The notes: generated from the letters alone by a model not told the origin. DNA of 64,000 bases from Candidatus Aenigmatarchaeota archaeon (GCA_046539325.1 JBKHHD010000003.1:843-64842); one strand, 5' to 3'; numbered from the stretch's first letter, positions 3-52,360 are shown. Program-made: numbers and translations.

Positions 3-3000
3 GTGCTCGTGAACAGCAGCTGGACAACAAATGATGAGGAAGTGGGGCCCGACGATAACTACACGGTGGGGGAGAACGCCTCGGACAGCATCCAGGGCGG
101 GATAAACCTGACCGTGGAGAACGAAAGCGTCGGTGTGTATTCCGGTCTTTACAACGAAAGCAAAGGTCTCTGGAACTTCGAAAACGTGACGGAACTGGTG
201 AGCCTGGAGCCATGGAAAGCGAGGGTCAACATAACAGGGAACAGTTCCGAAAGGATACACGTGGATAGTAACGGAACAACCGTAAAAGGTCTCAACGTGA
301 CCAGGGACTTCCAGGAAACGGAGGAACCGTGGGTAAGGGCAATGGAGATAACCGCCGGGAACGTGTCCCTGATAAAGAACAAGCTAAGTGGTGAAGGACT
401 TAACGATACAACAGAGGGTCAGACGGGGATCCTGGTAAACTCTACGTCTGAAAGAAACACGACCAATGTCCACATCTCAGACAACGAAATCACAAACTTC
501 CGCGAAGGTATACTTGTAACGGACGGACCCGATCAGGACGCAGGGATGGTGGACAACCTAACAATCGCAGAAAATATTATAGAGGGCAACGAATACGGTA
601 CTGTCCTCGCGAACAACAACGACACAGAAGACCTACAGCCAACAAACCTCAGCCTGGAGAAAAACATTCTCAGGGGATCTGGAACAGGCCTGTACATATC
701 AGGCAACGAGAACTGGGGAAATAAGAACTACACATCATTCGACACCACGGAACTAAATCTATTCGAAAACCGCTTCGAGCAGCAGGGGACACATCTAAGG
801 GACAACCCCGGCGGGTTGGACCTCAAAAGCGTCGTAGATGATAACAGCTTCGACATCGGCGCGCTGGTCCCTGACGTTGGAGGGAGCGGCTACGAACAGG
901 CTATATCTACTAGCGTGGATAAAGCAACCAGTCTGGCCGCGGAGGGAAGTGAAGTGGAAGTTCTTCCAGGAAAGTACACGGAAGATGTGGTTATAGATAC
1001 CAACAACCTTAAATTAACTTCTCTTGAAGGAATGGAAAACACGACCGTAAACGCAAGCGCTAGCAAGGAAGATAGTCCCTACGCCATCGAAATCACGGCA
1101 GAGAACGTCACCCTGGACGGTTTCACCGTGGAGAACACCCTAGGAAGCGGGGACAACGTTGTATTTGTAGACCACGGTCCTCAAGGTAACACGACTCTCC
1201 TCGACAACAGGTTCGTGGCCGTGTCCGGATACGAAAGTGAATCAGGAAAGACAGAGTTCTCGGTCGAGACCAAAAGTAGGCTGGTGGCCGAGAACAACTC
1301 CTTCGTGGAGGAAGGTACTACGGACGCTACGCTAACCCACGGTATAGGGGGAACCGATGCGGACGCCGCAGATTCCGTGATCCGGAACAACTGGTTCGGT
1401 CCAGGTCTGGACGAAGTCAACGGAAGGTCGGAAGGCGACGGAGAACAGTCTATGACCACGGGAATCCAGATGGCAGGTGCAGACAACGTCACAGTCGAAG
1501 GAAACACGTTCGTGGACGTCTGGGGAAGCGCAGTTATCTTCAACGGTGACGTGGAAAACGCGACCGTCCTGGAAAACGATATATATTACGCAAACTCCGG
1601 TGTGGTCTTCCTTTCAGACGAATCCGACAGTAACAATATAACCGGCGAACTCCTGGTCAACAGAAACAACTTCTTCGACCTGGGTGCAGGAATGGATCCC
1701 GATGGATACGGCGTGTTCGTCGGTGAAAACTGGGGCACGGAGGGGAGCGACAACGTAAGCGAGGTCGATGGAAGGGAGAACTGGTGGGGTACATACAACA
1801 AAGAGGAGATAAACGTAAGTGAGGGCGTGGTCTACTGGCCATGGTTCAATGACACGTACCAAGAAGGAGAAGCTGTAGGTGGACTACCTGCCGTGGAGAC
1901 ACTGGACGAGGAGAACGTCACATATCATTCGGTGGATCTCCCTGGAAACCTGACGTCCATGGGTGTCTTCAACAGCACAAACCTGTCCCTGGACTGGAAA
2001 AATATCGGCGGAGACTGGAACAGAGTAGAAGTCGAAACTGGAAGAGAAGGGTTGGGGACCTATAATACATCCATAGAAGATCTTGACTCCAATACAAGCT
2101 ACAGGTTCAGGGCGGTTTCGGAGGTCGAGGAGAATGGTGACAACTACACCTACAAAGCGTCTACAAGGGAGTTCAAGACGGAGTCGTACGTGAAGACACT
2201 GGATCCTGAAAGAGACTACACGGAGACAACTCTACGAGGTAACCTAACGGATATGCCCGGCGGAAACGACTGGGCAAACGTCTCCTTTATGTACACGGAC
2301 GGAAGTGAGTGGAACGAAACGAACGTAACGAACGCGACATCTGCCGGAACCTTCACCGAGACGATAGACGTCGAGGTAGACAACGACTACAAATACTACG
2401 CAGTCGTGAGGTGGGAAGACAACGAAACGGTTGAAAACACAGGAGGTAATGTAAGCTTCGATATACCCGAGAGGCCGAATATAGATACAGTAGGCTCTAG
2501 CGACGTCAACTCAGACAGCGCGACCCTTGAGGCAGAGATAACGAACCTAGGTCTTGAGGATGAGCTCGACGAGGCGTTCATCCAGTACAGGAAGGATGGA
2601 AGCGATGACTGGGATGATGCGGATGAGACAGAGGGAATAGAGAACATCAACAGCGAAGAGAAGTTTGAGGATGAGGTCTCAGGACTCGATCCCAATACAA
2701 CGTACGAGTTCAGAGCCGTACTGTGGTGGGGTGATGACGGAGAGGACGGCGGAACGGAGGAGTTTACCACAGAAAAGACAGAGGAAGAGGAGGAGAACGA
2801 TACAGAGGAAGAACAACCAAGTATGAAGTTCGGGTCCGTGGACACGCTTCCTGAAGAAAATATAACTGATAGTTCCGCAGTACTGGTCGGGGACGTCGCC
2901 GTAATGCAAGCCATCGACAGCGTGGATGCATACTTCAGATACAGAGAAGCTGACGGCGGGTCGTGGTCGGAGACGTCCTGGGAAACCATAACAGATACAG

Positions 3001-3977
3001 GCGAGTTCGAGGCCGAGGCTGATGGATTGAGCCATGATACGGCCTACGAGTTCGAGGCGGTGATAGAGTGGAACGACGGCGATGAAGAAAGCATTGGCGA
3101 CATGAAGACATTCACTACTGAGAGGCTTGGTCCTGAAATAGTAGACCGATGGCCGAAGGACGGCGAGGAAGACCTCGGCAACGAAGTAAATTTGACCATG
3201 GAATTAAAGCATCCATACAACTACGAGATGAACGTCAGATTCTTAGACGAAGATACAGGAAACATGATAGATGAGATAAAGGGTGTGGGCAATGAGGAGG
3301 TAAACACTTCATGGTTCGGATTGAGTCACAACGAAACCTACAGGTGGGAAGTAGAGGTCCATGACGGTCACTCCTACACATCCTCTGATGTCTTCGAATT
3401 TCACACCACCACACAGCAAGAGGTGAGTCAGACAGAGGCGATGTTAAAAGACAATAAAGAAAAGGTCGAGAGTATGGAAGAGGACATCGAGAAAATCAAA
3501 GAGGAGATGGAAGACGGGGAGATCAGCGAAGACTACGAAAATACAAAGAAACTCTTGGTCGAAGCAGAGGAGGCGGTGGATGAGGGAGACTACGGAACTG
3601 CCATGAGCAAGCTAGAGGAGGCGGAAACGAAGAGAGCAGATCTGGAGAAAAGGATGGCAGAGGCGGAGGAAGAGATGGGTGGATCATGGATGTTTTGGGC
3701 CGCGGTCCTGGTAATCCTCGCTGGTTTGGGAATAGCGATCGTTTACTACTACAGAAACCCCAGGCGAAGGGGACAGAAAAACGTCGGAAGTTACACATAT
3801 AAAGGAAGCAAAGGGAGTGAGAGTTATCTCAACCGCCTTAAATCCCTGTTCACCTTTAGTGAAAGCGCTAGATACAGCTACAATACAGAGAGTAGAAGTG
3901 CAGTCAGACAAAAGCTCAAAAAACTGAAGAAGAAAGTGAAGAAAGGTAACAAGCAGAAGAAGTACGACGAGTTTTAA
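3..3977 (+). CDS. Large cell-surface glycoprotein, 5' truncated at the window edge. N-terminal right-handed beta-helix-like repeats, then ~100-aa Fn3/Ig-like repeats, a coiled-coil stalk, one C-terminal TM helix and a basic cytoplasmic tail
   Basis: Open frame of 1324 aa from the window start. Dozens of N-x-S/T sequons. Repeated GN..F/TVEGNTFVDVWGSAVIF beta-helix-like units. Repeats end in aromatic-x-(F/Y)-(R/E/K)-A-V motifs (YRFRAVSEVEE, YEFRAVLWWGDD, YEFEAVIEWNDGDE). Coiled-coil EEDIEKIKEEMEDGE...DEGDYGTAMSKLEEAE, TM MFWAAVLVILAGLGIAIVYYY, then tail RNPRRRGQKN...KKLKKKVKKGNKQKKY. Confidence 0.7.
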   Translation: MLVNSSWTTNDEEVGPDDNYTVGENASDSIQGGINLTVENESVGVYSGLYNESKGLWNFENVTELVSLEPWKARVNITGNSSERIHVDSNGTTVKGLNVTRDFQETEEPWVRAMEITAGNVSLIKNKLSGEGLNDTTEGQTGILVNSTSERNTTNVHISDNEITNFREGILVTDGPDQDAGMVDNLTIAENIIEGNEYGTVLANNNDTEDLQPTNLSLEKNILRGSGTGLYISGNENWGNKNYTSFDTTELNLFENRFEQQGTHLRDNPGGLDLKSVVDDNSFDIGALVPDVGGSGYEQAISTSVDKATSLAAEGSEVEVLPGKYTEDVVIDTNNLKLTSLEGMENTTVNASASKEDSPYAIEITAENVTLDGFTVENTLGSGDNVVFVDHGPQGNTTLLDNRFVAVSGYESESGKTEFSVETKSRLVAENNSFVEEGTTDATLTHGIGGTDADAADSVIRNNWFGPGLDEVNGRSEGDGEQSMTTGIQMAGADNVTVEGNTFVDVWGSAVIFNGDVENATVLENDIYYANSGVVFLSDESDSNNITGELLVNRNNFFDLGAGMDPDGYGVFVGENWGTEGSDNVSEVDGRENWWGTYNKEEINVSEGVVYWPWFNDTYQEGEAVGGLPAVETLDEENVTYHSVDLPGNLTSMGVFNSTNLSLDWKNIGGDWNRVEVETGREGLGTYNTSIEDLDSNTSYRFRAVSEVEENGDNYTYKASTREFKTESYVKTLDPERDYTETTLRGNLTDMPGGNDWANVSFMYTDGSEWNETNVTNATSAGTFTETIDVEVDNDYKYYAVVRWEDNETVENTGGNVSFDIPERPNIDTVGSSDVNSDSATLEAEITNLGLEDELDEAFIQYRKDGSDDWDDADETEGIENINSEEKFEDEVSGLDPNTTYEFRAVLWWGDDGEDGGTEEFTTEKTEEEEENDTEEEQPSMKFGSVDTLPEENITDSSAVLVGDVAVMQAIDSVDAYFRYREADGGSWSETSWETITDTGEFEAEADGLSHDTAYEFEAVIEWNDGDEESIGDMKTFTTERLGPEIVDRWPKDGEEDLGNEVNLTMELKHPYNYEMNVRFLDEDTGNMIDEIKGVGNEEVNTSWFGLSHNETYRWEVEVHDGHSYTSSDVFEFHTTTQQEVSQTEAMLKDNKEKVESMEEDIEKIKEEMEDGEISEDYENTKKLLVEAEEAVDEGDYGTAMSKLEEAETKRADLEKRMAEAEEEMGGSWMFWAAVLVILAGLGIAIVYYYRNPRRRGQKNVGSYTYKGSKGSESYLNRLKSLFTFSESARYSYNTESRSAVRQKLKKLKKKVKKGNKQKKYDEF

Positions 3978-4010
3978 TGAAATTCTAATCGAGACCGTAC
4001 CACAAACAGC

Positions 4011-4018
4011 TTTAAATA
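4011..4018 (+). promoter_or_regulatory. TATA-box-like TTTAAATA upstream of the surface-protein paralog 2 gene
   Basis: TTTAAATA lies 63 nt upstream of the ATG at 4081. A purine-rich AGAAGGA sits just before the ATG. Confidence 0.35.
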
Positions 4019-4080
4019 AAGTTCTCGGGTAATATTTCTTAGGATTAGTCCGAAAGCGCAAATAAAACCACAGAAGGATT

Positions 4081-5481
4081 ATGATATTTCAAAGGAAGGT
4101 CCTGCTTACAACCTTGGTGTTTTTTTGTTGTATAGTTCTTCTGCCAAACGTATCTGCCGAGTCTGAAGTCGAGGTAAGCACAGGCCGATTCGTTCCCATT
4201 GAAGATGAAGCAATTATATACGGCGAGGTCAATGGCACCGAACTTGAAAACAAGTCCATAGAAGTTTTCTTCCGTTGGGGCGAAGGATTTGAAAACGTGG
4301 AAAAAGAGACTTCAAAGAAATCGCTTCCAGAAGACAAAGAGTTTTTTGAAAGTTTGGAGAACCTAAAGCCTGATACTATCTACACCTATCAAGCGGTGGC
4401 ACAGTGGAACGGGAACGAAAGCTCCGGGTCTGTCGATCACTTCAGAACAGAAGACTTTGTAGACCACAAGGTAAACGCCGAGACACGTGACGCGGAGGAA
4501 ATCTCCTACACTGAAGCAACGCTTATCGGCGAGGTCAATAAAATGGATTTTGAGGAAGGTGAGTTCTTATTTAGGTGGGGAGAAAAAGGGAATCTCAGTC
4601 AAGAGACGAAAAGAGAGGACTTCTCGGAAACGGGGACATTTGAACACGGAATAAGCGACCTCCAAGCAAACACATCTTACCAGTTCCAGGCAGCCGTAGA
4701 TATCAACGGAAGCTATGAAACAGGTGAGAATAGAACATTCACTACCCTTACCCCTTACCCAGAGATTTCAGATCTCTCGCCCGAGGACGGCGCGAGCGAC
4801 ATGGCACCTACAGTCAATCTCAGCTTCGATCTATCACTTCCCTTAAAAGGAGAGGCCGAGGTCAAATTTTACGACGGTGAAGGATCCATTATAGCCGAAA
4901 GAAGCGAAGCTGAGGAAGGTAGAGTCTCTGCAGTATGGAAAGGCCTGAACTTCACCGAGGAGTATGAATGGAATGTGGAGGTAAAGTATAGAAACAGGAC
5001 CGTCAAATCCGAGAAACTCACCTTTGAGACCATGAATCAGACAAGGATTCAAAATATAGAGAACAGAATATACGAAGTTGAAGGGACAATATCTGAGACC
5101 GATGCCCTGCTTGAGAACGTCGACGGAGATACGGATACCTCGGCACTAGAAGCCGGTCTAAGTGACCTCAGAAGCCTGCATACTGAGGCCGAAAAAGCTG
5201 CTGATGAAGGCAACTACGGTTTGGCCGAAGAAAAGATAACTAATGCTGAGGAAGTGGAGGAAGAAGTCAGAAAAGAGGCAGAAAAACTCAAGGAACAGAC
5301 CAGAGAAATAAGCAATCTATGGATTGTACTGGTAATTATTATTGTTGCCACGGTTGCAATTGTTGCGTTATTTGTTTTCACGTTCCAAAAAGGAAGTGGC
5401 AGTAGTACAGGAAGTCCTTTCGAGGACATCGAAGAGCCGGATAGTATACTTGACGAAGACAATAAGGACGAGAAAAAGTAA
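4081..5481 (+). CDS. Surface protein paralog 2. Signal peptide, Fn3-like repeats, coiled-coil stalk, TM anchor, acidic tail
   Basis: N-terminal MIFQRKVLLTTLVFFCCIVLLPNVSAESE is signal-peptide-like. Repeats end in YTYQAVAQWNGNE and YQFQAAVDINGSYE. Coiled-coil carries DEGNYGLAEEKITNAEE. TM LWIVLVIIIVATVAIVALFVF. Confidence 0.7.
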   Translation: MIFQRKVLLTTLVFFCCIVLLPNVSAESEVEVSTGRFVPIEDEAIIYGEVNGTELENKSIEVFFRWGEGFENVEKETSKKSLPEDKEFFESLENLKPDTIYTYQAVAQWNGNESSGSVDHFRTEDFVDHKVNAETRDAEEISYTEATLIGEVNKMDFEEGEFLFRWGEKGNLSQETKREDFSETGTFEHGISDLQANTSYQFQAAVDINGSYETGENRTFTTLTPYPEISDLSPEDGASDMAPTVNLSFDLSLPLKGEAEVKFYDGEGSIIAERSEAEEGRVSAVWKGLNFTEEYEWNVEVKYRNRTVKSEKLTFETMNQTRIQNIENRIYEVEGTISETDALLENVDGDTDTSALEAGLSDLRSLHTEAEKAADEGNYGLAEEKITNAEEVEEEVRKEAEKLKEQTREISNLWIVLVIIIVATVAIVALFVFTFQKGSGSSTGSPFEDIEEPDSILDEDNKDEKK

Positions 5482-5547
5482 GAGACATCTGACCAAAGCT
5501 TAAATATTCACGGAAAATAAAGATAAGCAGTGGGTAGAGGATTCAAC

Positions 5548-8031
5548 ATGAAACGTAGTAAAAGCACTGTCGTGGTTGCAGCTACTGTATTCTTGGCCTT
5601 TCTTTTTCTTTCAGGATTTTCTGTTGCTGATACAACAGTTTATACAGAAGATGTAGAAAACGTCACGTATAATTCATCCATCTTTGTTGGTTCTTTGAGC
5701 CATGATGAAGATGAGGTAAACGTTTCCTTTCAATATAGTGATAACCCTGACAACGAAGATGAATGGGAGTATGAAACGGAATCCAAGACTTTGAGCGAGT
5801 CTACGGATAGATTCACTATTGGGGCCGAAGGTCTTTCAGTCAATACAACCTATGCATACAGGGCAATAGCTGAAGGTGAGAGTACTAGTTACGGTGAAAT
5901 TCAAGAGTTCACTACCTACGCAGAACCTACAGTCAAAGCGACGGAAGCCACCGAAATCACCCATGACAGTGCCGTTCTTCAGGGTAATCTAGTCGAAATA
6001 GGCATGGAAGAAGAAGTAGATCTATATTTCGCCTGGCAAGATGAGTTCCAGGACGACGAATGGAACACTACGGATAATTTCACCCTTCAGGAAGAAGGGG
6101 TCTTCACGAAGGAAATAGAAAATCTAGGAAGCGACAGGGAACATAATTTCAAGGCAGTGATGAATTGGGGAGAAGAAAACCATACGGTAGAAAACACAGG
6201 AGAAACCTTCCAAACAAAAACTCCAGTATATGTCGAGGCACGAGAGGTGGAGGAAGTAACAACCAACTCAGCTCTCCTCAAGGCTGAGGTTCTTGGTGAA
6301 GAAGACAAAGTACAAGAGGAAGAGATCAATGCTTCCTTCTTCGTCAAAAACGATGGAATGGAAAAGATAAAGGAAATTGAAGTCGGGGATACCGGAACTA
6401 TAGAAGCAGAGGCCAATAACCTTCAATCAGGTCACAGCTATATCTCTCGTATAGAAATTTCAGACTATGATTCATCCGATGAAATCGATTTTCTCACAGC
6501 TCCGAACGTGAGCATGAAAAATCTGGACGTGGATTCCGAAGAGGTATACGTGGACGAGGAGTTCGAGGCAAGTGTAGATGTGGAGAATCTAGGAGACGTG
6601 GAATACGAATACGAGGTCGTTTTCTCTGTGGATGGTGACGAGGAGAAAACGGTAGATGCAAATGTTTCAGGTGGGAACACCGAAAAAGTCACAGCCGGTC
6701 TTTCGGTTGGTTCCTCAGGTACCTATGACGTGGAAGCAGAAGTACTTGGTAAAACAAATGAAACAGGAATAGAGGTCTTTAACAAGCCGAATGTAGAAAC
6801 AAAAACCCCTGAAGAAGTTGGAGAAGACTACGCAATTCTCGAAGGTGAAGTAACTGAGATGGGTTTAGAGGACGATGTCAAGGTTTTCTTCCGTTTCGGC
6901 GATGAAGACGAAGACGAAGAATACTGGAGCGAGAGCGAGAAACAGGATATTGATGGAGAAGAGGGATTTGAACAGGAAGTTCAACTAAACGAAGAAATCG
7001 GATACGGGTACAAGGCTGTAGTCCAATGGAATGACGGTGACGACGAAAATACTGGTCAAACTCTCACCATGACACCCGATGCATGCGAATATAACAACTG
7101 GGAAAATGAGACATGTGGCGGATGGGAATGTGACGAAGATGAAGTATATCAGGTCAAAGAGGTCACCGATGGTAGCCCCAGCTACTGTGAAGATATCAAA
7201 GAAAGATGTTTTGAATCAGAGAACTATTGTGGTGTGCCAGATGTAAATATTACCCCCGAAAAGGAAATAGTAAATGTTAGTGGAGGTGAACATGAAAAGA
7301 ACAACGTGACGGTTTGGAATATAGGTACCGAGGATCTTAAAGACGTTGAAATGGAAATAGAAGGAAATATACCCGATAACTGGTTCGAAGTCACTGTATC
7401 TAGTTTGGATATAGAGCAAAAGGATGAGAAGGATTTCCAGGTAAACTTCACACCTAATTCTGGAGCACCTGTTGGTAAATATACGATAAATTACTCCGTG
7501 GACTATGGCTCAACAGAAAGGAAGGAAGGCAAGCTGTGGGTACATCCTGATGAAGAAGGGGAGAAAAAGATAAACACTAGGCACAAAAACCTCACGCAGG
7601 ACATTGAAACTATCGAAGGAACAATAAAAGATCTTTCAGAAAAAACCAATGTCAGTCACCTCGAAGAAGATCTCTCAAGACTCAAAGAGCTAACGGCTGA
7701 GGGCGATGAAGCAATAGAAGAAGGTAACTCCATGGCAGCAAAGGAAAAAATAGAGGAGTCGGAATTCCTACTGTCGGAGATAAAGGATAAAATCCAAACA
7801 ACGGAGAAAGAACTGTCCTTTCCCTGGGCATGGATAGGTGTCGGCATAGTTGTAATTATCGTAATCAGTGTTCTCATTTACTTGCTTCTTCCGCCTATTG
7901 AGGAGTACAAAAGATCAGGTTATCAAAGTCCTAGTGATGAGACAGTCCAGGACAAAATAAAGGAAAAATTCAAGGAACTCAAGGAAAGGATTTTCGGCGA
8001 GGAAGAAGAAGGATACACCTATCAGGACTGA
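5548..8031 (+). CDS. Surface protein paralog 3. Signal peptide, Fn3-like repeats, Cys-rich module, CARDB/DUF11-like domain, coiled-coil stalk, TM anchor
   Basis: The ORF track begins at a GTG at 5530. The ATG at 5548 (MKRSKSTVVVAATVFLAFLFLSGFSVA) has GAGG 9 nt upstream and yields a clean signal peptide. Repeats end in YAYRAIAEGES, HNFKAVMNWGEEN and YGYKAVVQWNDGDDE. Cys-rich CEYNNWENETCGGWECDEDE...YCEDIKERCFESENYCG. Coiled-coil carries EEGNSMAAKEKIEESE. TM WAWIGVGIVVIIVISVLIYLLL. Confidence 0.7.
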   Translation: MKRSKSTVVVAATVFLAFLFLSGFSVADTTVYTEDVENVTYNSSIFVGSLSHDEDEVNVSFQYSDNPDNEDEWEYETESKTLSESTDRFTIGAEGLSVNTTYAYRAIAEGESTSYGEIQEFTTYAEPTVKATEATEITHDSAVLQGNLVEIGMEEEVDLYFAWQDEFQDDEWNTTDNFTLQEEGVFTKEIENLGSDREHNFKAVMNWGEENHTVENTGETFQTKTPVYVEAREVEEVTTNSALLKAEVLGEEDKVQEEEINASFFVKNDGMEKIKEIEVGDTGTIEAEANNLQSGHSYISRIEISDYDSSDEIDFLTAPNVSMKNLDVDSEEVYVDEEFEASVDVENLGDVEYEYEVVFSVDGDEEKTVDANVSGGNTEKVTAGLSVGSSGTYDVEAEVLGKTNETGIEVFNKPNVETKTPEEVGEDYAILEGEVTEMGLEDDVKVFFRFGDEDEDEEYWSESEKQDIDGEEGFEQEVQLNEEIGYGYKAVVQWNDGDDENTGQTLTMTPDACEYNNWENETCGGWECDEDEVYQVKEVTDGSPSYCEDIKERCFESENYCGVPDVNITPEKEIVNVSGGEHEKNNVTVWNIGTEDLKDVEMEIEGNIPDNWFEVTVSSLDIEQKDEKDFQVNFTPNSGAPVGKYTINYSVDYGSTERKEGKLWVHPDEEGEKKINTRHKNLTQDIETIEGTIKDLSEKTNVSHLEEDLSRLKELTAEGDEAIEEGNSMAAKEKIEESEFLLSEIKDKIQTTEKELSFPWAWIGVGIVVIIVISVLIYLLLPPIEEYKRSGYQSPSDETVQDKIKEKFKELKERIFGEEEEGYTYQD

Positions 8032-8376
8032 CTATTTTATATCACACGAAAATCTGCTTTCTAGAATAGAAGCCCTCTTCGCTGCCTGGCATATTTCACA
8101 GAATCTCTCGTCGTATTGCTCCATATCTATTCTTTGTTTCGCGACGTCCTCTACGAGACCATCAACTTTCCTCGAAACATCCTCCGATTTCTCTATCTTC
8201 TTTACCTGTCTTCCTCTCAGTTCGTTCTGGTACTGTGAGACAGCGGGCTGTGTCATATCCAAACGTCTTGCAGTCTCCCTCTGAGTAAGACCGTGTTCTT
8301 CGACTAGATCCCTCGCAAGAATAGCTCTGACAGCAGGAAGGAGATCGTTGACAAAAACCTCACATACGAGTTTCAT
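8032..8376 (-). CDS. Small HTH transcription regulator with a C-terminal Cys cluster
   Basis: HTH-like GLTQRETARRLDMTQPAVSQY, with C-terminal CEICQ...C. Its stop directly abuts the stop of the convergent surface-protein gene. Confidence 0.5.
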   Translation of the reverse strand: MKLVCEVFVNDLLPAVRAILARDLVEEHGLTQRETARRLDMTQPAVSQYQNELRGRQVKKIEKSEDVSRKVDGLVEDVAKQRIDMEQYDERFCEICQAAKRASILESRFSCDIK

Positions 8377-44496: not shown

Positions 44497-44570
44497 ACTC
44501 CCTATCCTCTTTATTTTTATTCTCCTCCTCCTTTATTCTTAAATAGTTTCAGTCGTAAGTATTGAGGACA

Positions 44571-47240
44571 ATGAAGGCCAAGATTTTGGTTCCTGCAATA
44601 CTGGTTTTGTTCTTCCTATTACCGGAAGTCGCCGAGGTATGGGTCGACTACATATGGTTTGAATCCATTGGATATCTCTCAGTATTCACTAAGATTCTTA
44701 CGACAAGGCTCGCTCTAGCAGCCGCCGGCTTGGTTTTTACCTCGCTATTCATATGGCTAAACCTCAAGGCTGCAGGCAAAAATATAGATATAGAAGAGCT
44801 TCGCCTTAAGGCCAGGTTAAGAGGTTTTGAAGTCTTTGGAGTCTCATCAATCCTCGTAGGAATTATCGCAGGTGTTGTATGTTCAGGGTCTTACATGACA
44901 GTTCTGAAGTTCCTCAACTCCACGGACTTTGGACAAACCGAAGCAGTCTTTGGGAAAGATATATCATTTTACTTCTTCGAACTTCCCTTCTGGAACCTGA
45001 CAGTGGGATACTTCCTTGGAATAATAGCTGTAACGATAGCGATCGTTGCCGCTTTCTACTACCTCACAATACAGAAGAAAATGGAAGCTGAAGAGAGCTT
45101 CGATGATATTCTCGAGGCAGCAAAGAGACACCTGTATCCGTTAGGTGGTACATTCTTCCTCCTGCTGGGTATAAGAATATACTTGGCCAGATACTCCATA
45201 CTTTTCTCGGATATCGGAGCAGTCTTCGGTGCAGGCTACATGGACATCAACCTCCTCCTTCCTTTGATAATCGTAACCTCTGTTGTCTGCGCAGCCGTAG
45301 GAGTAACGCTCTTCGCAAACCTCAAGCTCGACAAAGCAAAGTATCCAGCCTACGGAGTAGTGGTCCTCATAGCTCTCCTGATCCTCGGAGGAGTTGGATC
45401 CGCACTTGTTCAGTCCTACTACGTTGAGCCAAACGAGTTCAACCTCGAAAGGGAGTATCTCGAAAGGAACATAGAACATACAAGGTCAGCCTATGGGCTA
45501 CATGATATGGAGCATATTGACTTCGATGCGACCTACAACCTCACGGCTGATGACCTCGAGGAAAAGGATCAAACGATGGACAACATAAGGCTGTGGGACT
45601 ACCGAGTTCTCAAGGACACTTACTCAAGTACACAGGAGCTGAGAACTTACTACGAGTTCCAGGATGTCGACGTGGACAGGTACAGGCTAAACGGCGACAG
45701 GAAGCAGGTCATGCTCTCTGTAAGGGAGCTGAACGCCGACAAGCTATCTGAAGGTGCCCAGTCCTGGGTCAACCGACACCTCGTATACACACACGGCACG
45801 GGCGGAGTCATGTCGCCTGTGAGAGATGTAAAGAACGGGCATCCGGAACTGTGGCTCAAAGACATACCAACACAGGTTACAGATGAAGCGCCTTCACCTG
45901 AAGACATAGACCTGGAGAATCCTGACATATACTTCGGTGAAGGCACGGACAACTTCGCGGTAGTTGACACAGCCGTGGAGGAGTTCGACTATCCGACTGG
46001 CGAGGAAAACGCCTTCACCACGTACGAAGGCACCGCAGGCATAGACATGAGCTTTATAGACAGGCTTGCCTTCGCCGTAAACCTAGGAGACTTCCGTTTT
46101 CTGGTCTCCGACGCACTCGAGCCCCAGTCAAAGATCCTGATAAGGAGAAACATAGACAGGAGGATTAGAGAAGTCGCTCCCTTCCTACAGTACGACCGTG
46201 ATCCATATCCTGTCGTACACAAAGGCAGAATTTTCTGGATCTACGATTCCTATACGACTTCGGACAGGTATCCGTACTCCGAACCCGTAAACGGTATAAA
46301 CTACATACGTAACTCGGTGAAGGCCACGATAGATAGCTACAACGGTGAGGTCAACTACTACGTAGTCGAGGACGATCCCCTTGCAAAGACGTACAGCAAG
46401 ATATTTCCCGATCTGTTCAAACAAAAGGAGGAGATGGACGAGAACCTGAAGGAACATATAAGGTATCCCGAGGGCCTCTTTAGTATCCAAGCTGAGATAC
46501 TAACGACGTACCATATGACCAATCCACGTGTATTCTACAACCGAGAGGACCAGTGGCAGATTCCGAAAGAGAGTTATAGGGGAAGGCAACAGGAAATGGA
46601 ACCGTACTACGTAACCCTAGAGCTTCCTGAAAGAAACGAGACGCAGTTCACGCTGATGCTTCCGTTCACACCGGAAAACAGACCCAACATGGTCGCTTGG
46701 CTAGGGGCGAAGAGCGATGAACCCAACTACGGCGAAACACTTCTTTACCGTTTCTCCAAGGAGGAGCTCATCTACGGTCCAAGTCAGATAGAGTCAAGAA
46801 TAGATCAGAACTCTGAGATCTCCGAGAGACTCACGCTTTGGGACCAGAGAGGAAGTGAAGTGATAAGAGGAAATCTTCTAGTGATTCCTATCAAAGACTC
46901 TGTGCTGTATATAGAGCCTGTATTCCTTGAGGGTGACGAGGAAGCCATACCTGAGCTAAGGAGGGTTATAGTGGCCTACGAGGACCAGATAAGTATGCAG
47001 CCTACACTTGAACAGGCTCTGGTGGACATATTTGGAGAGTTCGAGGATATAGAGGTCCCGGAGGAAGTTCCAGAAGACATGGATGAAGCTCCGGAAGAAC
47101 CTGTTATAGACACAGAACTCCTTGAAGAAGCTAGGCAACACTACCAAGAAGCTCAGCGCTATCTAAGAGAAGGAAACCTCTCTGGTTATCAGGAACAGAT
47201 AGAGAAGTTAGGAGAGATTCTAGAAAAAATGGAACAGTGA
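44571..47240 (+). CDS. UPF0182-family (COG1615-like) membrane protein with a large extracytoplasmic domain
   Basis: ~7 N-terminal TM helices, then a ~600-aa soluble domain. The ATG at 44571 sits 25 nt downstream of TTAAATAG. The ORF-track TTG at 44562 is less likely. Confidence 0.55.
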   Translation: MKAKILVPAILVLFFLLPEVAEVWVDYIWFESIGYLSVFTKILTTRLALAAAGLVFTSLFIWLNLKAAGKNIDIEELRLKARLRGFEVFGVSSILVGIIAGVVCSGSYMTVLKFLNSTDFGQTEAVFGKDISFYFFELPFWNLTVGYFLGIIAVTIAIVAAFYYLTIQKKMEAEESFDDILEAAKRHLYPLGGTFFLLLGIRIYLARYSILFSDIGAVFGAGYMDINLLLPLIIVTSVVCAAVGVTLFANLKLDKAKYPAYGVVVLIALLILGGVGSALVQSYYVEPNEFNLEREYLERNIEHTRSAYGLHDMEHIDFDATYNLTADDLEEKDQTMDNIRLWDYRVLKDTYSSTQELRTYYEFQDVDVDRYRLNGDRKQVMLSVRELNADKLSEGAQSWVNRHLVYTHGTGGVMSPVRDVKNGHPELWLKDIPTQVTDEAPSPEDIDLENPDIYFGEGTDNFAVVDTAVEEFDYPTGEENAFTTYEGTAGIDMSFIDRLAFAVNLGDFRFLVSDALEPQSKILIRRNIDRRIREVAPFLQYDRDPYPVVHKGRIFWIYDSYTTSDRYPYSEPVNGINYIRNSVKATIDSYNGEVNYYVVEDDPLAKTYSKIFPDLFKQKEEMDENLKEHIRYPEGLFSIQAEILTTYHMTNPRVFYNREDQWQIPKESYRGRQQEMEPYYVTLELPERNETQFTLMLPFTPENRPNMVAWLGAKSDEPNYGETLLYRFSKEELIYGPSQIESRIDQNSEISERLTLWDQRGSEVIRGNLLVIPIKDSVLYIEPVFLEGDEEAIPELRRVIVAYEDQISMQPTLEQALVDIFGEFEDIEVPEEVPEDMDEAPEEPVIDTELLEEARQHYQEAQRYLREGNLSGYQEQIEKLGEILEKMEQ

Positions 47241-51535: not shown

Positions 51536-52360
51536 ATGGCTGATTGTAGCTACTGTGGAAAGGAAGCAGATATACCATTTAAATGTAAGTTCTGTAGTGA
51601 CACCTTTTGCTCAGAACATAGGCTGCCTGAAAACCATGAATGTGTGGGGCTTGACAAGTACAAGGAAAAGGCGCGGAGTGATGAGAAAGTAGTTTACGAA
51701 CCCTTCCAGGCGACATGGGAAAAGAAGTCCTCAGGACTTTCCTCTACCTTTCTAAAAAGCATCACCCAAAGCTACTCGATGCTAATAATCTCCATATGCT
51801 TCGTAGTTTTCCTTTTGCAAGCTGCGATACCAGGGTTTACGGAGTATCTATGGCTTTCGCCACAGCTAGGCGAAATTCTCAGTAGACCCTGGACATTTAT
51901 AACTTCAATATTTCTACATGGCAACGGGTGGCATCTTTTCGTAAATATGCTCGTCCTCTTTTTCTTTGGAGGTGAGCTTGAGAGAAGGGTAGGAAGCAGG
52001 AAGTTTTTGGAGATATTTTTAGTAACTGGAATTGCAGGAAATCTAGGCTTCACACTGTTCTCCTACGCCACTGGAGAATTCATCCCAGCAGTCGGAGCCT
52101 CGGGAGCGATATTCGGTGTTTTCGCGACTCTTGCTATAATAGCGCCGGAAATAAGAGTACTGATATGGTTCGTATTTCCCCTTAAGATACGTCAAGCGCT
52201 TGTAATATTTGCCCTATGGGACTTATTCCTACTTCCAAGAGGTGGACCTATAGCAAATTCAGCTCATTTAGCAGGACTGGCCATAGGACTAATCTATGGT
52301 TATAGATTAAAAAATAAACAAACTGGCACAGCATTTAAGAAAATAACGAGGAGGTTGTAA
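51536..52360 (+). CDS. Rhomboid-family intramembrane serine protease with an N-terminal AN1-type zinc finger
   Basis: CSYCGKEADIPFKCKFCSDTFCSEHRLPENHEC. Rhomboid GASGAIFGV and AHLAGLAIG. Confidence 0.8.
   Translation: MADCSYCGKEADIPFKCKFCSDTFCSEHRLPENHECVGLDKYKEKARSDEKVVYEPFQATWEKKSSGLSSTFLKSITQSYSMLIISICFVVFLLQAAIPGFTEYLWLSPQLGEILSRPWTFITSIFLHGNGWHLFVNMLVLFFFGGELERRVGSRKFLEIFLVTGIAGNLGFTLFSYATGEFIPAVGASGAIFGVFATLAIIAPEIRVLIWFVFPLKIRQALVIFALWDLFLLPRGGPIANSAHLAGLAIGLIYGYRLKNKQTGTAFKKITRRL

Follow-up and report, generated by a model that had tools for sequence, protein, structure and literature searches.

We analyzed a stretch of 64,000 nucleotides (nt) from Candidatus Aenigmatarchaeota archaeon (GCA_046539325.1 JBKHHD010000003.1:843-64842), referred to here as the window, in which three genes encode proteins that end in a common C-terminal module: a predicted three-helix stalk, a transmembrane (TM) helix, and a tail. 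Coordinates are positions in the whole window, counted from its first letter. Six-frame open reading frame (ORF) analysis placed the genes, which we call A (3..3977), B (4081..5481), and C (5530..8031), head to tail; all three, and all of their features described below, are on the plus strand. The N terminus of A is cut by the window edge, leaving 1324 amino acids (aa), and its database representative of 1605 aa is partial too. Gene B encodes 466 aa, and its product is identical to a protein from a metagenome-assembled genome (MAG) labeled 'Candidatus Aenigmatarchaeota archaeon' (NCBI locus tag ACLFTY_01525). The ORF of C opens with a GTG at 5530, and its likely start is an ATG at 5548, from which it encodes 827 aa, matching its database representative (P0002).

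The initial annotation of this DNA had described a conserved motif in all three C termini, and we found the motifs at the places that it gave: DEGDYGTA in A (aa 1193-1200, nt 3579..3602), at the junction of helices 2 and 3; DEGNYGLA in B (aa 375-382, nt 5203..5226); and EEGNSMAA in C (aa 730-737, nt 7717..7740), where Ser replaces a Tyr that is near-invariant in the wider family. In each protein, the motif is followed 33 to 35 residues on by one strongly hydrophobic segment of 21 to 23 aa and then by a tail of 31 to 74 aa. The stalk spans 3429..3683 in A (helix 1, ~3429-3512; helix 2, ~3522-3581; helix 3, ~3591-3683), with the helix limits placed by alignment to B and C; 5035..5316 in B, according to a single-sequence AlphaFold2 (AF2) model; and 7552..7818 in C (helix 1, 7552-7638; helix 2, 7654-7719; helix 3, 7729-7818). 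The TM helices are SWMFWAAVLVILAGLGIAIVYYY in A (3684..3752), LWIVLVIIIVATVAIVALFVFTF in B (5317..5385), and WAWIGVGIVVIIVISVLIYLL in C (7825..7887), the last preceded by a Phe-Pro kink. Their inner ends read YYYRNP in A and YLLLPP in C; B has neither the inner Tyr nor the inner Pro, yet the spacing and the outer Trp are kept. The putatively cytoplasmic tail of A (3753..3974) is basic (23 Lys plus Arg and 5 Asp plus Glu) and contains GSYTYKG, ARYSYN, and a terminal KQKKYDEF. That of C (7888..8028) has a membrane-proximal LPPIEEY..GY, a predicted amphipathic helix (KIKEKFKELKERIF), and a terminal EEEEGYTYQD. The B tail (5386..5478) is short and acidic, has no Y-x-Y, and is the furthest of the three from the family consensus; the B orthologue at the related locus L004 has a terminal KKYRYKG. 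A and B thus have in full the three helices (~28-32, 20-22, and 30-34 residues) and the G-[DN]-[YF]-x-x-A turn between helices 2 and 3, which C shares except for Ser in place of Tyr. A TM helix 33 to 37 residues past the turn Tyr with an outer aromatic belt and inner Tyr/Pro occurs in A and C, as does a G-Y-x-Y or K-Y-x-E-F tail motif, which is often at the C terminus and is absent from B.

BLASTP with composition adjustment revealed that the modules are homologous (E values of 4e-9 for B versus C and 4e-6 for A versus B), as expected from the earlier proposal that three paralogs share a single C-terminal module. The term paralogs is fair, because the ectodomains of A and B are similar as well (7e-34 over 424 residues) and the Fn3-like repeats of C are common to A and B. 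A profile built from the three modules was searched against the 380 six-frame ORFs of the window and found no additional copy. When this profile was searched with HMMER against 1.84 billion representative proteins, 44 proteins matched at an E value of ≤1e-3 and eight at ≤1e-10, with full-length profile matches down to 1e-19 in proteins other than the representatives of the three seeds themselves. In 40 of the 44, the match spans nearly the whole profile and stands directly before a single C-terminal hydrophobic helix, which is followed by 5 to 94 residues; the four exceptions are helical-repeat proteins that have the hairpin motif alone in common with the module. Members with a complete N terminus begin with a signal-like hydrophobic segment. 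It was the exhaustive HMMER search that revealed the family. A word-indexed search, which is insensitive for a low-complexity helical region, returned no match for the three-module alignment, B alone for B, and two matches for the 40-module alignment.

Alignment of the 40 modules (A3) revealed a set of conserved columns. The turn Tyr of G-[DN]-Y is present in 35 of the 40 sequences and the Ala three residues on in 38, with the turn Gly in 26 and the turn Asp/Asn in 34. At the membrane, a Trp marks the outer end of the TM helix in 24/40, and the inner end carries a Tyr in 35/40 and a Pro in 30/34; the TM helix also contains two conserved Gly residues eleven positions apart, and further conserved Gly-Tyr positions occur in the tail. 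Spacing is similarly constrained: the turn Tyr lies 33 to 37 residues from the TM Trp in 32/40 members, which fits the earlier suggestion of a dedicated stalk-anchor acting at a fixed distance, and 49 to 54 residues from the TM-end Tyr in 35/40. A generic coiled coil without conserved positions, the outcome named beforehand as the one that would count against the module, is not what this alignment contains. Part of the G-D-Y-x-x-A conservation among the matches comes from selection by the query profile. The seed sequences show the TM-end Tyr and Pro and the tail motifs weakly or not at all, and these features are therefore independent evidence of common descent. In 23 of the 40 modules, the loop between helices 1 and 2 contains an N-x-S/T sequon, N-V-S in C (7639-7653), with D-T-S in its place in B. 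The sequon probably marks a conserved N-glycosylation site near the membrane.

A looser relative of the hairpin is found elsewhere in the window, in a UPF0182 membrane protein (44562-47240; E value, 5e-283) whose C-terminal extension ends ...EAQRYLREGNLSGYQEQIEKL. This ending (G-N-L-S-G-Y) has its Tyr three residues further on and lacks the Ala, so a hairpin motif of this broad type is not by itself diagnostic.

No Pfam or NCBIfam model covers the module, whether A, B, and C were scanned whole or the 40 modules individually, and we found no description of it in the literature. The scans gave matches below threshold to coiled-coil-type families such as EzrA, Rad50, and Spectrin. EzrA (PF06160) was matched by 15 of the 40 modules with a best E value of 2.8e-6, and one listed score is 11.1 bits against a cutoff of 39.6 bits; Spectrin (PF00435) reached 14 to 16 bits against 29.9. 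TIGR04211 (SH3_and_anchor) reached at best 27 bits, in A, against a cutoff of 65, and was matched weakly by 14/40 modules over the helix and TM part alone; an SH3 domain is absent. Neither PGF-CTERM (TIGR04126) nor any other curated sorting-signal model of NCBIfam matched A, B, or C at an E value of ≤0.1. There is no PGF tripeptide at the three C termini, and the PGF tripeptides of the window sit inside unrelated ORFs. Together with tails of 31 to 74 aa, as opposed to the few basic residues of the archaeosortase signal, these results support the view that the module is distinct from PGF-CTERM.

We used AF2 to predict the structure of the module. For the C-terminal 267 residues of C, a model made with a 23-sequence alignment has a mean predicted local distance difference test score (pLDDT) of 86, and the values reach 93 to 98 over residues 1-190. 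The model starts with a beta-sandwich (residues 1-106), which leads into helix 1 (109-137), helix 2 (143-164), a three-residue turn, and helix 3 (168-197). A Phe-Pro break separates helix 3 from the TM helix (200-220), after which the chain is disordered except for an amphipathic helix (240-256). The model places the three-residue turn at the motif of the initial annotation, which is thus the cap between helices 2 and 3. In the single-sequence model of B, helices span residues 315-346, 354-375, and 379-438, the last continuous through the TM segment, with pLDDT values of 77 to 94 there and poor values elsewhere. AF2 therefore predicts that the stalk folds back on itself, within one chain, into an antiparallel three-helix bundle of ~85 residues. 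The bundle would be about 4 to 4.5 nm long; by simple arithmetic, a helix of 29 to 32 residues measures ~4.5 nm. The region had been called a coiled coil; instead of an extended oligomeric rod, AF2 gives a self-contained antiparallel bundle. A Foldseek search against the PDB matched the beta-sandwich and nothing else. Searching PDB sequences with the family profile returned designed three-helix bundles, the TPR region of DNAJC3, and EzrA among the best 60 matches, which included no natural homolog.

We compared the regions of C orthologs by their mean identity to the window protein. The Cys-rich element of the ectodomain is the best conserved part (62%), and the Fn3-like ectodomain (51%), the last beta-sandwich (50%), the TM helix (51%), and the tail (52%) are alike. 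The three helices are the least conserved region (32%). Because the length and a few packing residues of the stalk are kept while its surface drifts, the stalk behaves as a spacer and not as a recognition surface. The tail is largely disordered yet as conserved as the folded domains, so it is probably under functional constraint. A spacer joined to a constrained tail fits the low identity of the stalk against 51 to 52% for the TM helix and the tail. The initial annotation had raised the possibility that a partner recognizes the helical part for sorting or modification; the data do not favor this, as the bundle is the fastest-evolving part (32% versus ~51% elsewhere), and any partner would more likely engage the conserved cytoplasmic tail than the bundle. 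Between protein C of the window (5530-8031) and its counterpart at locus L002 (1796-4375), identity is 80% over the Fn3-like ectodomain but only 52% over the last beta-sandwich and 28% over the three helices, with 54% over the TM helix and tail; the helices of the window protein are closest to those of locus L007. This pattern hints at either a recombination mosaic or very fast evolution in the anchor region.

In 45 tails of at least 20 residues, Lys and Arg total 636 against 354 Asp and Glu, and this net-basic character is consistent with a cytoplasmic location. The earlier description of a charged tail can be refined, in that the tails bear specific Tyr motifs. Y-x-[YF] is found 47 times, whereas shuffled tails contain 18.5 (~2.5-fold), and 16 tails have it within their last 12 residues, where 3.2 would be expected; neither 47 nor 16 was reached in any of 2000 shuffles, although these figures are not true probabilities because the tail sequences are related. 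Recurrent motifs, found in A and C of the window and in proteins from the set P0004-P0044, are G-Y-x-Y or K-Y-x-E-F and a membrane-proximal P-P-x-E-G-Y-x-P-x-K-G-Y segment. C-type proteins typically end in EEEEGYTYQD, EEEGYRYKG, or KKHGYDYKG, and A-type proteins in KQKKYDEF or KQKKYSEF; the endings are kept within orthologous groups. At locus L010, an ORF (569..2017) neighboring a module gene encodes a TM helix and a tail (GGYHPKKGW...EGFRYEYKG) but no helical bundle, which indicates that the tail is a separable conserved element.

All named members of the clusters belong to Candidatus Aenigmatarchaeota/Aenigmarchaeota, and among them are MAGs from hot springs, hydrothermal sediment, and hypersaline sites. 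A scan of one genome per GTDB species with the narrow pattern Y[LMI]L[LM]PPxE[GE]Y, taken from a six-sequence alignment, returned eight loci, which are a biased, C-type sample; six are labeled Aenigmatarchaeota, one 'Nanobdellati archaeon', and one 'uncultured archaeon'. A scan of viral contigs found no relatives. Six related MAGs keep the A-(B)-C cluster in synteny. At the six closest loci, A, (B), and C are followed by a small HTH gene encoded on the other strand and then by glutamate dehydrogenase, IscS, and IscU. Tandem runs of several module-bearing genes occur at related loci; L007 has A directly followed by C, without B, and L008 and L009 have a single module gene each. The ectodomains carried by the module are diverse. 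They include a right-handed beta-helix with Fn3-like domains (A), Fn3-like and Ig-like domains (B), Fn3-like, CARDB-like, and Cys-rich parts (C), and subtilisin-like proteases in P0015 and P0042, whose catalytic motifs were read off the sequences.

Further features of the genes surround the module. Protein A has a right-handed beta-helix and several Fn3-like domains ahead of the anchor module. In B, a signal peptide (nt 4081-4158) is followed by two Fn3-like domains and an Ig-like domain before the module. Protein C starts with a signal peptide (nt 5548-5628), and its ectodomain contains Fn3-like and CARDB-like domains and a Cys-rich element, CEYNNWENETCGGWEC...C (7084..7230), which is kept in C-like homologs and had no family match. 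The element has the pattern C-x-Y-x-[DN]-W-x-[DN]-x-x-C-G-G-W-x-C...C...C...C, is also found in P0011 and P0030, and precedes the last beta-sandwich of C (CARDB/NPCBM_assoc/PapD-like; 7231..7548). Such a beta-sandwich stands directly 5' of the stalk in most family members. TATA-like boxes, AGCTTTAAATAA at 4009-4020 and AGCTTAAATATT at 5497-5508, lie 5' of B and of the ATG of C at 5548; they suggest separate yet similar archaeal promoters for B and C, and they support the ATG at 5548 over the GTG at 5530 as the start of C. On the minus strand, long ORFs overlap gene A within 1181-4061 (for example, 2396-2989 and 3684-4061). Their Ser/Pro-rich translations mirror the acidic coding strand, and they are unlikely to be genes.

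Downstream of C and convergent to it, an HTH_3 gene (8032-8376, minus strand) encodes 114 aa with Cys residues near the C terminus. Such a gene is convergent to the last module gene in the window and in L002-L007, a homolog is near the module gene of L008, an HTH_3 gene is near that of L010, and IscS/IscU usually come next; the adjacency may be inherited gene order. A rhomboid intramembrane protease gene fused to an N-terminal AN1 zinc finger lies at 51536-52360, and we saw no link between it and A, B, or C. The DNA of the window is 43 to 52% G+C, and its proteins are strongly acidic. The flanking housekeeping genes share 75 to 85% identity with their counterparts on contig PWEA01000011 (L007) and in other MAGs from soda lakes. 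PWEA01 belongs to a lineage lately named Haloaenigmatarchaeaceae, a halophilic family within the DPANN phylum Aenigmatarchaeota (PMC13195033). Judged by the similarity of its flanking genes to L007, the window appears to come from this family.

From the observed sequence anatomy and family distribution, together with the predicted fold, we consider it probable that the module is a phylum-specific type I stalk-and-anchor cassette of the Aenigmatarchaeota, fused to varied secreted ectodomains. From these data we infer a topology, glycosylation, a spacer role, and a possible partner for the tail as follows. The N-terminal signal peptide, which can be read from the sequences of B and C, would direct export, presumably by the Sec route. 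The C-terminal hydrophobic helix would then act as a stop-transfer anchor with the N terminus outside and the C terminus inside, as suggested by hydropathy and the net-basic tails of the family, and the ~85 extracellular residues before it are predicted to fold by themselves into the antiparallel three-helix bundle. Helix 1 would run down from the last beta-sandwich, placing the loop between helices 1 and 2, often with its N-x-S/T sequon, near the membrane. Helix 2 would run back up to the G-[DN]-Y-x-x-A turn, which would cap the membrane-distal end, and helix 3 would descend through a Pro/Gly kink and a W-x-W belt into the TM helix. The bundle would thereby form a short rigid pedestal of near-constant length that raises the ectodomain above the membrane. 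On the inner side, the Y-L-L-x-P/G-Y-x-P-x-K-G-Y segment, the basic amphipathic helix, and the terminal G-Y-x-Y or K-Y-x-E-F could clamp the inner leaflet or dock a cytoplasmic partner; this is the least certain step.

Several points weigh against this interpretation. The tails of B and C are net acidic (4 Lys plus Arg versus 10 Asp plus Glu in B, and 8 versus 13 in C), which leaves the wider family and A as the basis of the positive-inside argument. C does not have the near-invariant Tyr, and B does not have the tail motifs. AF2 was run on monomers, and an oligomeric arrangement is thus possible. The restriction to one phylum rests on a three-sequence profile and the named minority of the matches, and a deeper search might reach other archaea. 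Finally, the topology, the fold, the glycosylation, and the display at the cell surface have all been predicted.

The strongest competitor, though an unlikely one, is that the stalk serves oligomerization. In this case, chains of one kind, or A, B, and C together, would pack into a multichain pillar that anchors a surface complex or surface layer (S-layer), as in tetrabrachion or in SlaB of Sulfolobus, a protein with a signal peptide, beta-sandwiches, a helical region, and a C-terminal TM helix that forms trimeric stalks (PMC6911244). The module proteins match this architecture, the A-B-C tandem is conserved in related MAGs, and the small TM residues G117 and G128 (alignment numbering), eleven apart, lie on one face of the helix. 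However, AF2 gives a closed antiparallel bundle with pLDDT values above 93; the helices, at 22 to 30 residues, are short compared with the ~100-residue coiled coil of SlaB; and the best 60 PDB matches of the 40-sequence family profile include no SlaB chain, although the module was not compared directly with the SlaB sequence. An obligate A:B:C complex is unlikely because L007 has no B and L008 and L009 have one module gene each, and we rejected an obligate heterotrimer on the absence of B from L007. In the stalk-and-anchor reading, the same helices would pack within a single chain.

If the module were instead a sorting or processing signal, its TM helix and tail would be lost, either by cleavage or lipid modification, as in archaeosortase substrates, or through shedding by an intramembrane protease such as a rhomboid. 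Like sorting signals, the module is C-terminal and common to many otherwise unrelated secreted proteins, and it has a conserved Gly in the outer third of the TM helix and a Pro at the inner end. Single-pass type I proteins are the usual substrates of rhomboids, and there is a rhomboid gene in the window; that gene, however, is a common housekeeping gene located 43 kb from the module genes. Tails of up to 94 aa with motifs conserved to the very last residues are hard to reconcile with a signal that is discarded, and we rejected a PGF-CTERM reading, given that A, B, and C have neither a model match at an E value of ≤0.1 nor a PGF motif at the C terminus. We regard processing of this kind as improbable. 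Far less probable still is that there is no real module, and that acidic low-complexity coiled-coil composition next to an ordinary TM helix creates the resemblance. The weak matches of the region to unrelated coiled-coil families (EzrA, Rad50, Spectrin), and the occurrence of the G-D-Y-x-x-A hairpin in unrelated helical-repeat proteins (P0012, P0026, and P0034) and in looser form in the UPF0182 protein, are what such an origin would produce. It would not account for the BLASTP values after composition adjustment, for full-length profile matches down to 1e-19, for conserved nonheptad positions and spacing, for TM-end and tail motifs that do not come from the seed profile, or for orthologous conservation at syntenic loci. 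On the BLASTP values, conserved columns, and spacing, we rejected a purely compositional resemblance.

The cassette defines a domain family that is missing from Pfam and NCBIfam. Most Aenigmatarchaeota have not been cultured; these DPANN archaea are presumed to live attached to hosts, and to our knowledge almost nothing has been learned about their cell surface. The cassette appears to tie many different proteins to it and could serve as a sequence tag for listing the surface proteome of the phylum from MAGs, including adhesin-like beta-helix/Fn3 proteins, CARDB proteins, and subtilases. A compact self-folding pedestal with a conserved tail is also a candidate display scaffold or a handle on interaction partners. 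Archaea are already known to have helical stalks anchored by a C-terminal TM helix, so no current view is overturned; the cassette is an uncurated, new form of a known type of anchor. As a speculation that we think doubtful, the tail could be a docking site that ties the surface adhesins and enzymes of episymbiotic DPANN cells to a cytoplasmic machine, for localization, turnover, or signaling on host contact, with anchor cassettes perhaps exchanged between surface genes. The identity of the tail (~52%) relative to that of the stalk (32%) and its presence on the stalkless L010 protein would fit an active tail, and the contrast between 80% ectodomain and 28% stalk identity with L002 hints at exchange. 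If true, the tail would be a prokaryotic counterpart of the tyrosine-based tail motifs in eukaryotic type I receptors.

Parts of the module resemble several known structures. The pattern A-x-x-A-[ILM]-x-x-G-[DN]-Y-x-x-A matches the helix A/B junction of TPR, and the family profile matched the TPR region of DNAJC3 over positions 36-75 (E value, 7e-5), which corresponds to helix 2, the turn, and helix 3; the module, however, has one hairpin within a closed bundle and no repeat array, and Pfam TPR models remained below threshold. Matches to the three-helix repeats of Spectrin and EzrA and to designed antiparallel three-helix bundles were below curated cutoffs. EzrA is cytoplasmic, with an N-terminal anchor and many repeats, whereas the module is predicted to be a single extracellular bundle whose helix 3 runs into the TM helix. 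The haptoglobin-hemoglobin receptor of Trypanosoma brucei, a eukaryotic protein of unrelated sequence, has a three-helix-bundle stalk and a C-terminal glycosylphosphatidylinositol anchor. Its bundle binds the ligand, whereas that of the module carries separate ectodomains.

Among archaeal surface proteins, the module resembles the PGF-CTERM/archaeosortase A system of Halobacteria and other Euryarchaeota in being C-terminal, in occurring on many surface proteins of one lineage, and in its hydrophobic helix. It differs in its long conserved tail and its structured 85-residue helical domain upstream, and it shows no sign of cleavage or lipid attachment. MSTP-like beta-sandwich S-layer proteins have been predicted for Aenigmatarchaeota (preprint 10.1101/2024.05.28.596244); A, B, and C differ from these and are more likely surface-displayed adhesins or enzymes. 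By analogy, the closest known system in function is SlaB, which has the same order of parts and a membrane-proximal stalk that holds an extracellular protein above the membrane. The ~100-residue helical region of SlaB is thought to be a parallel trimeric coiled coil, whereas the module has three short helices in a predicted intramolecular antiparallel bundle. SlaB is one dedicated protein with one partner, SlaA; the module of the Aenigmatarchaeota is portable, found on many ectodomains, and equipped with a long conserved tail that is predicted to be cytoplasmic.

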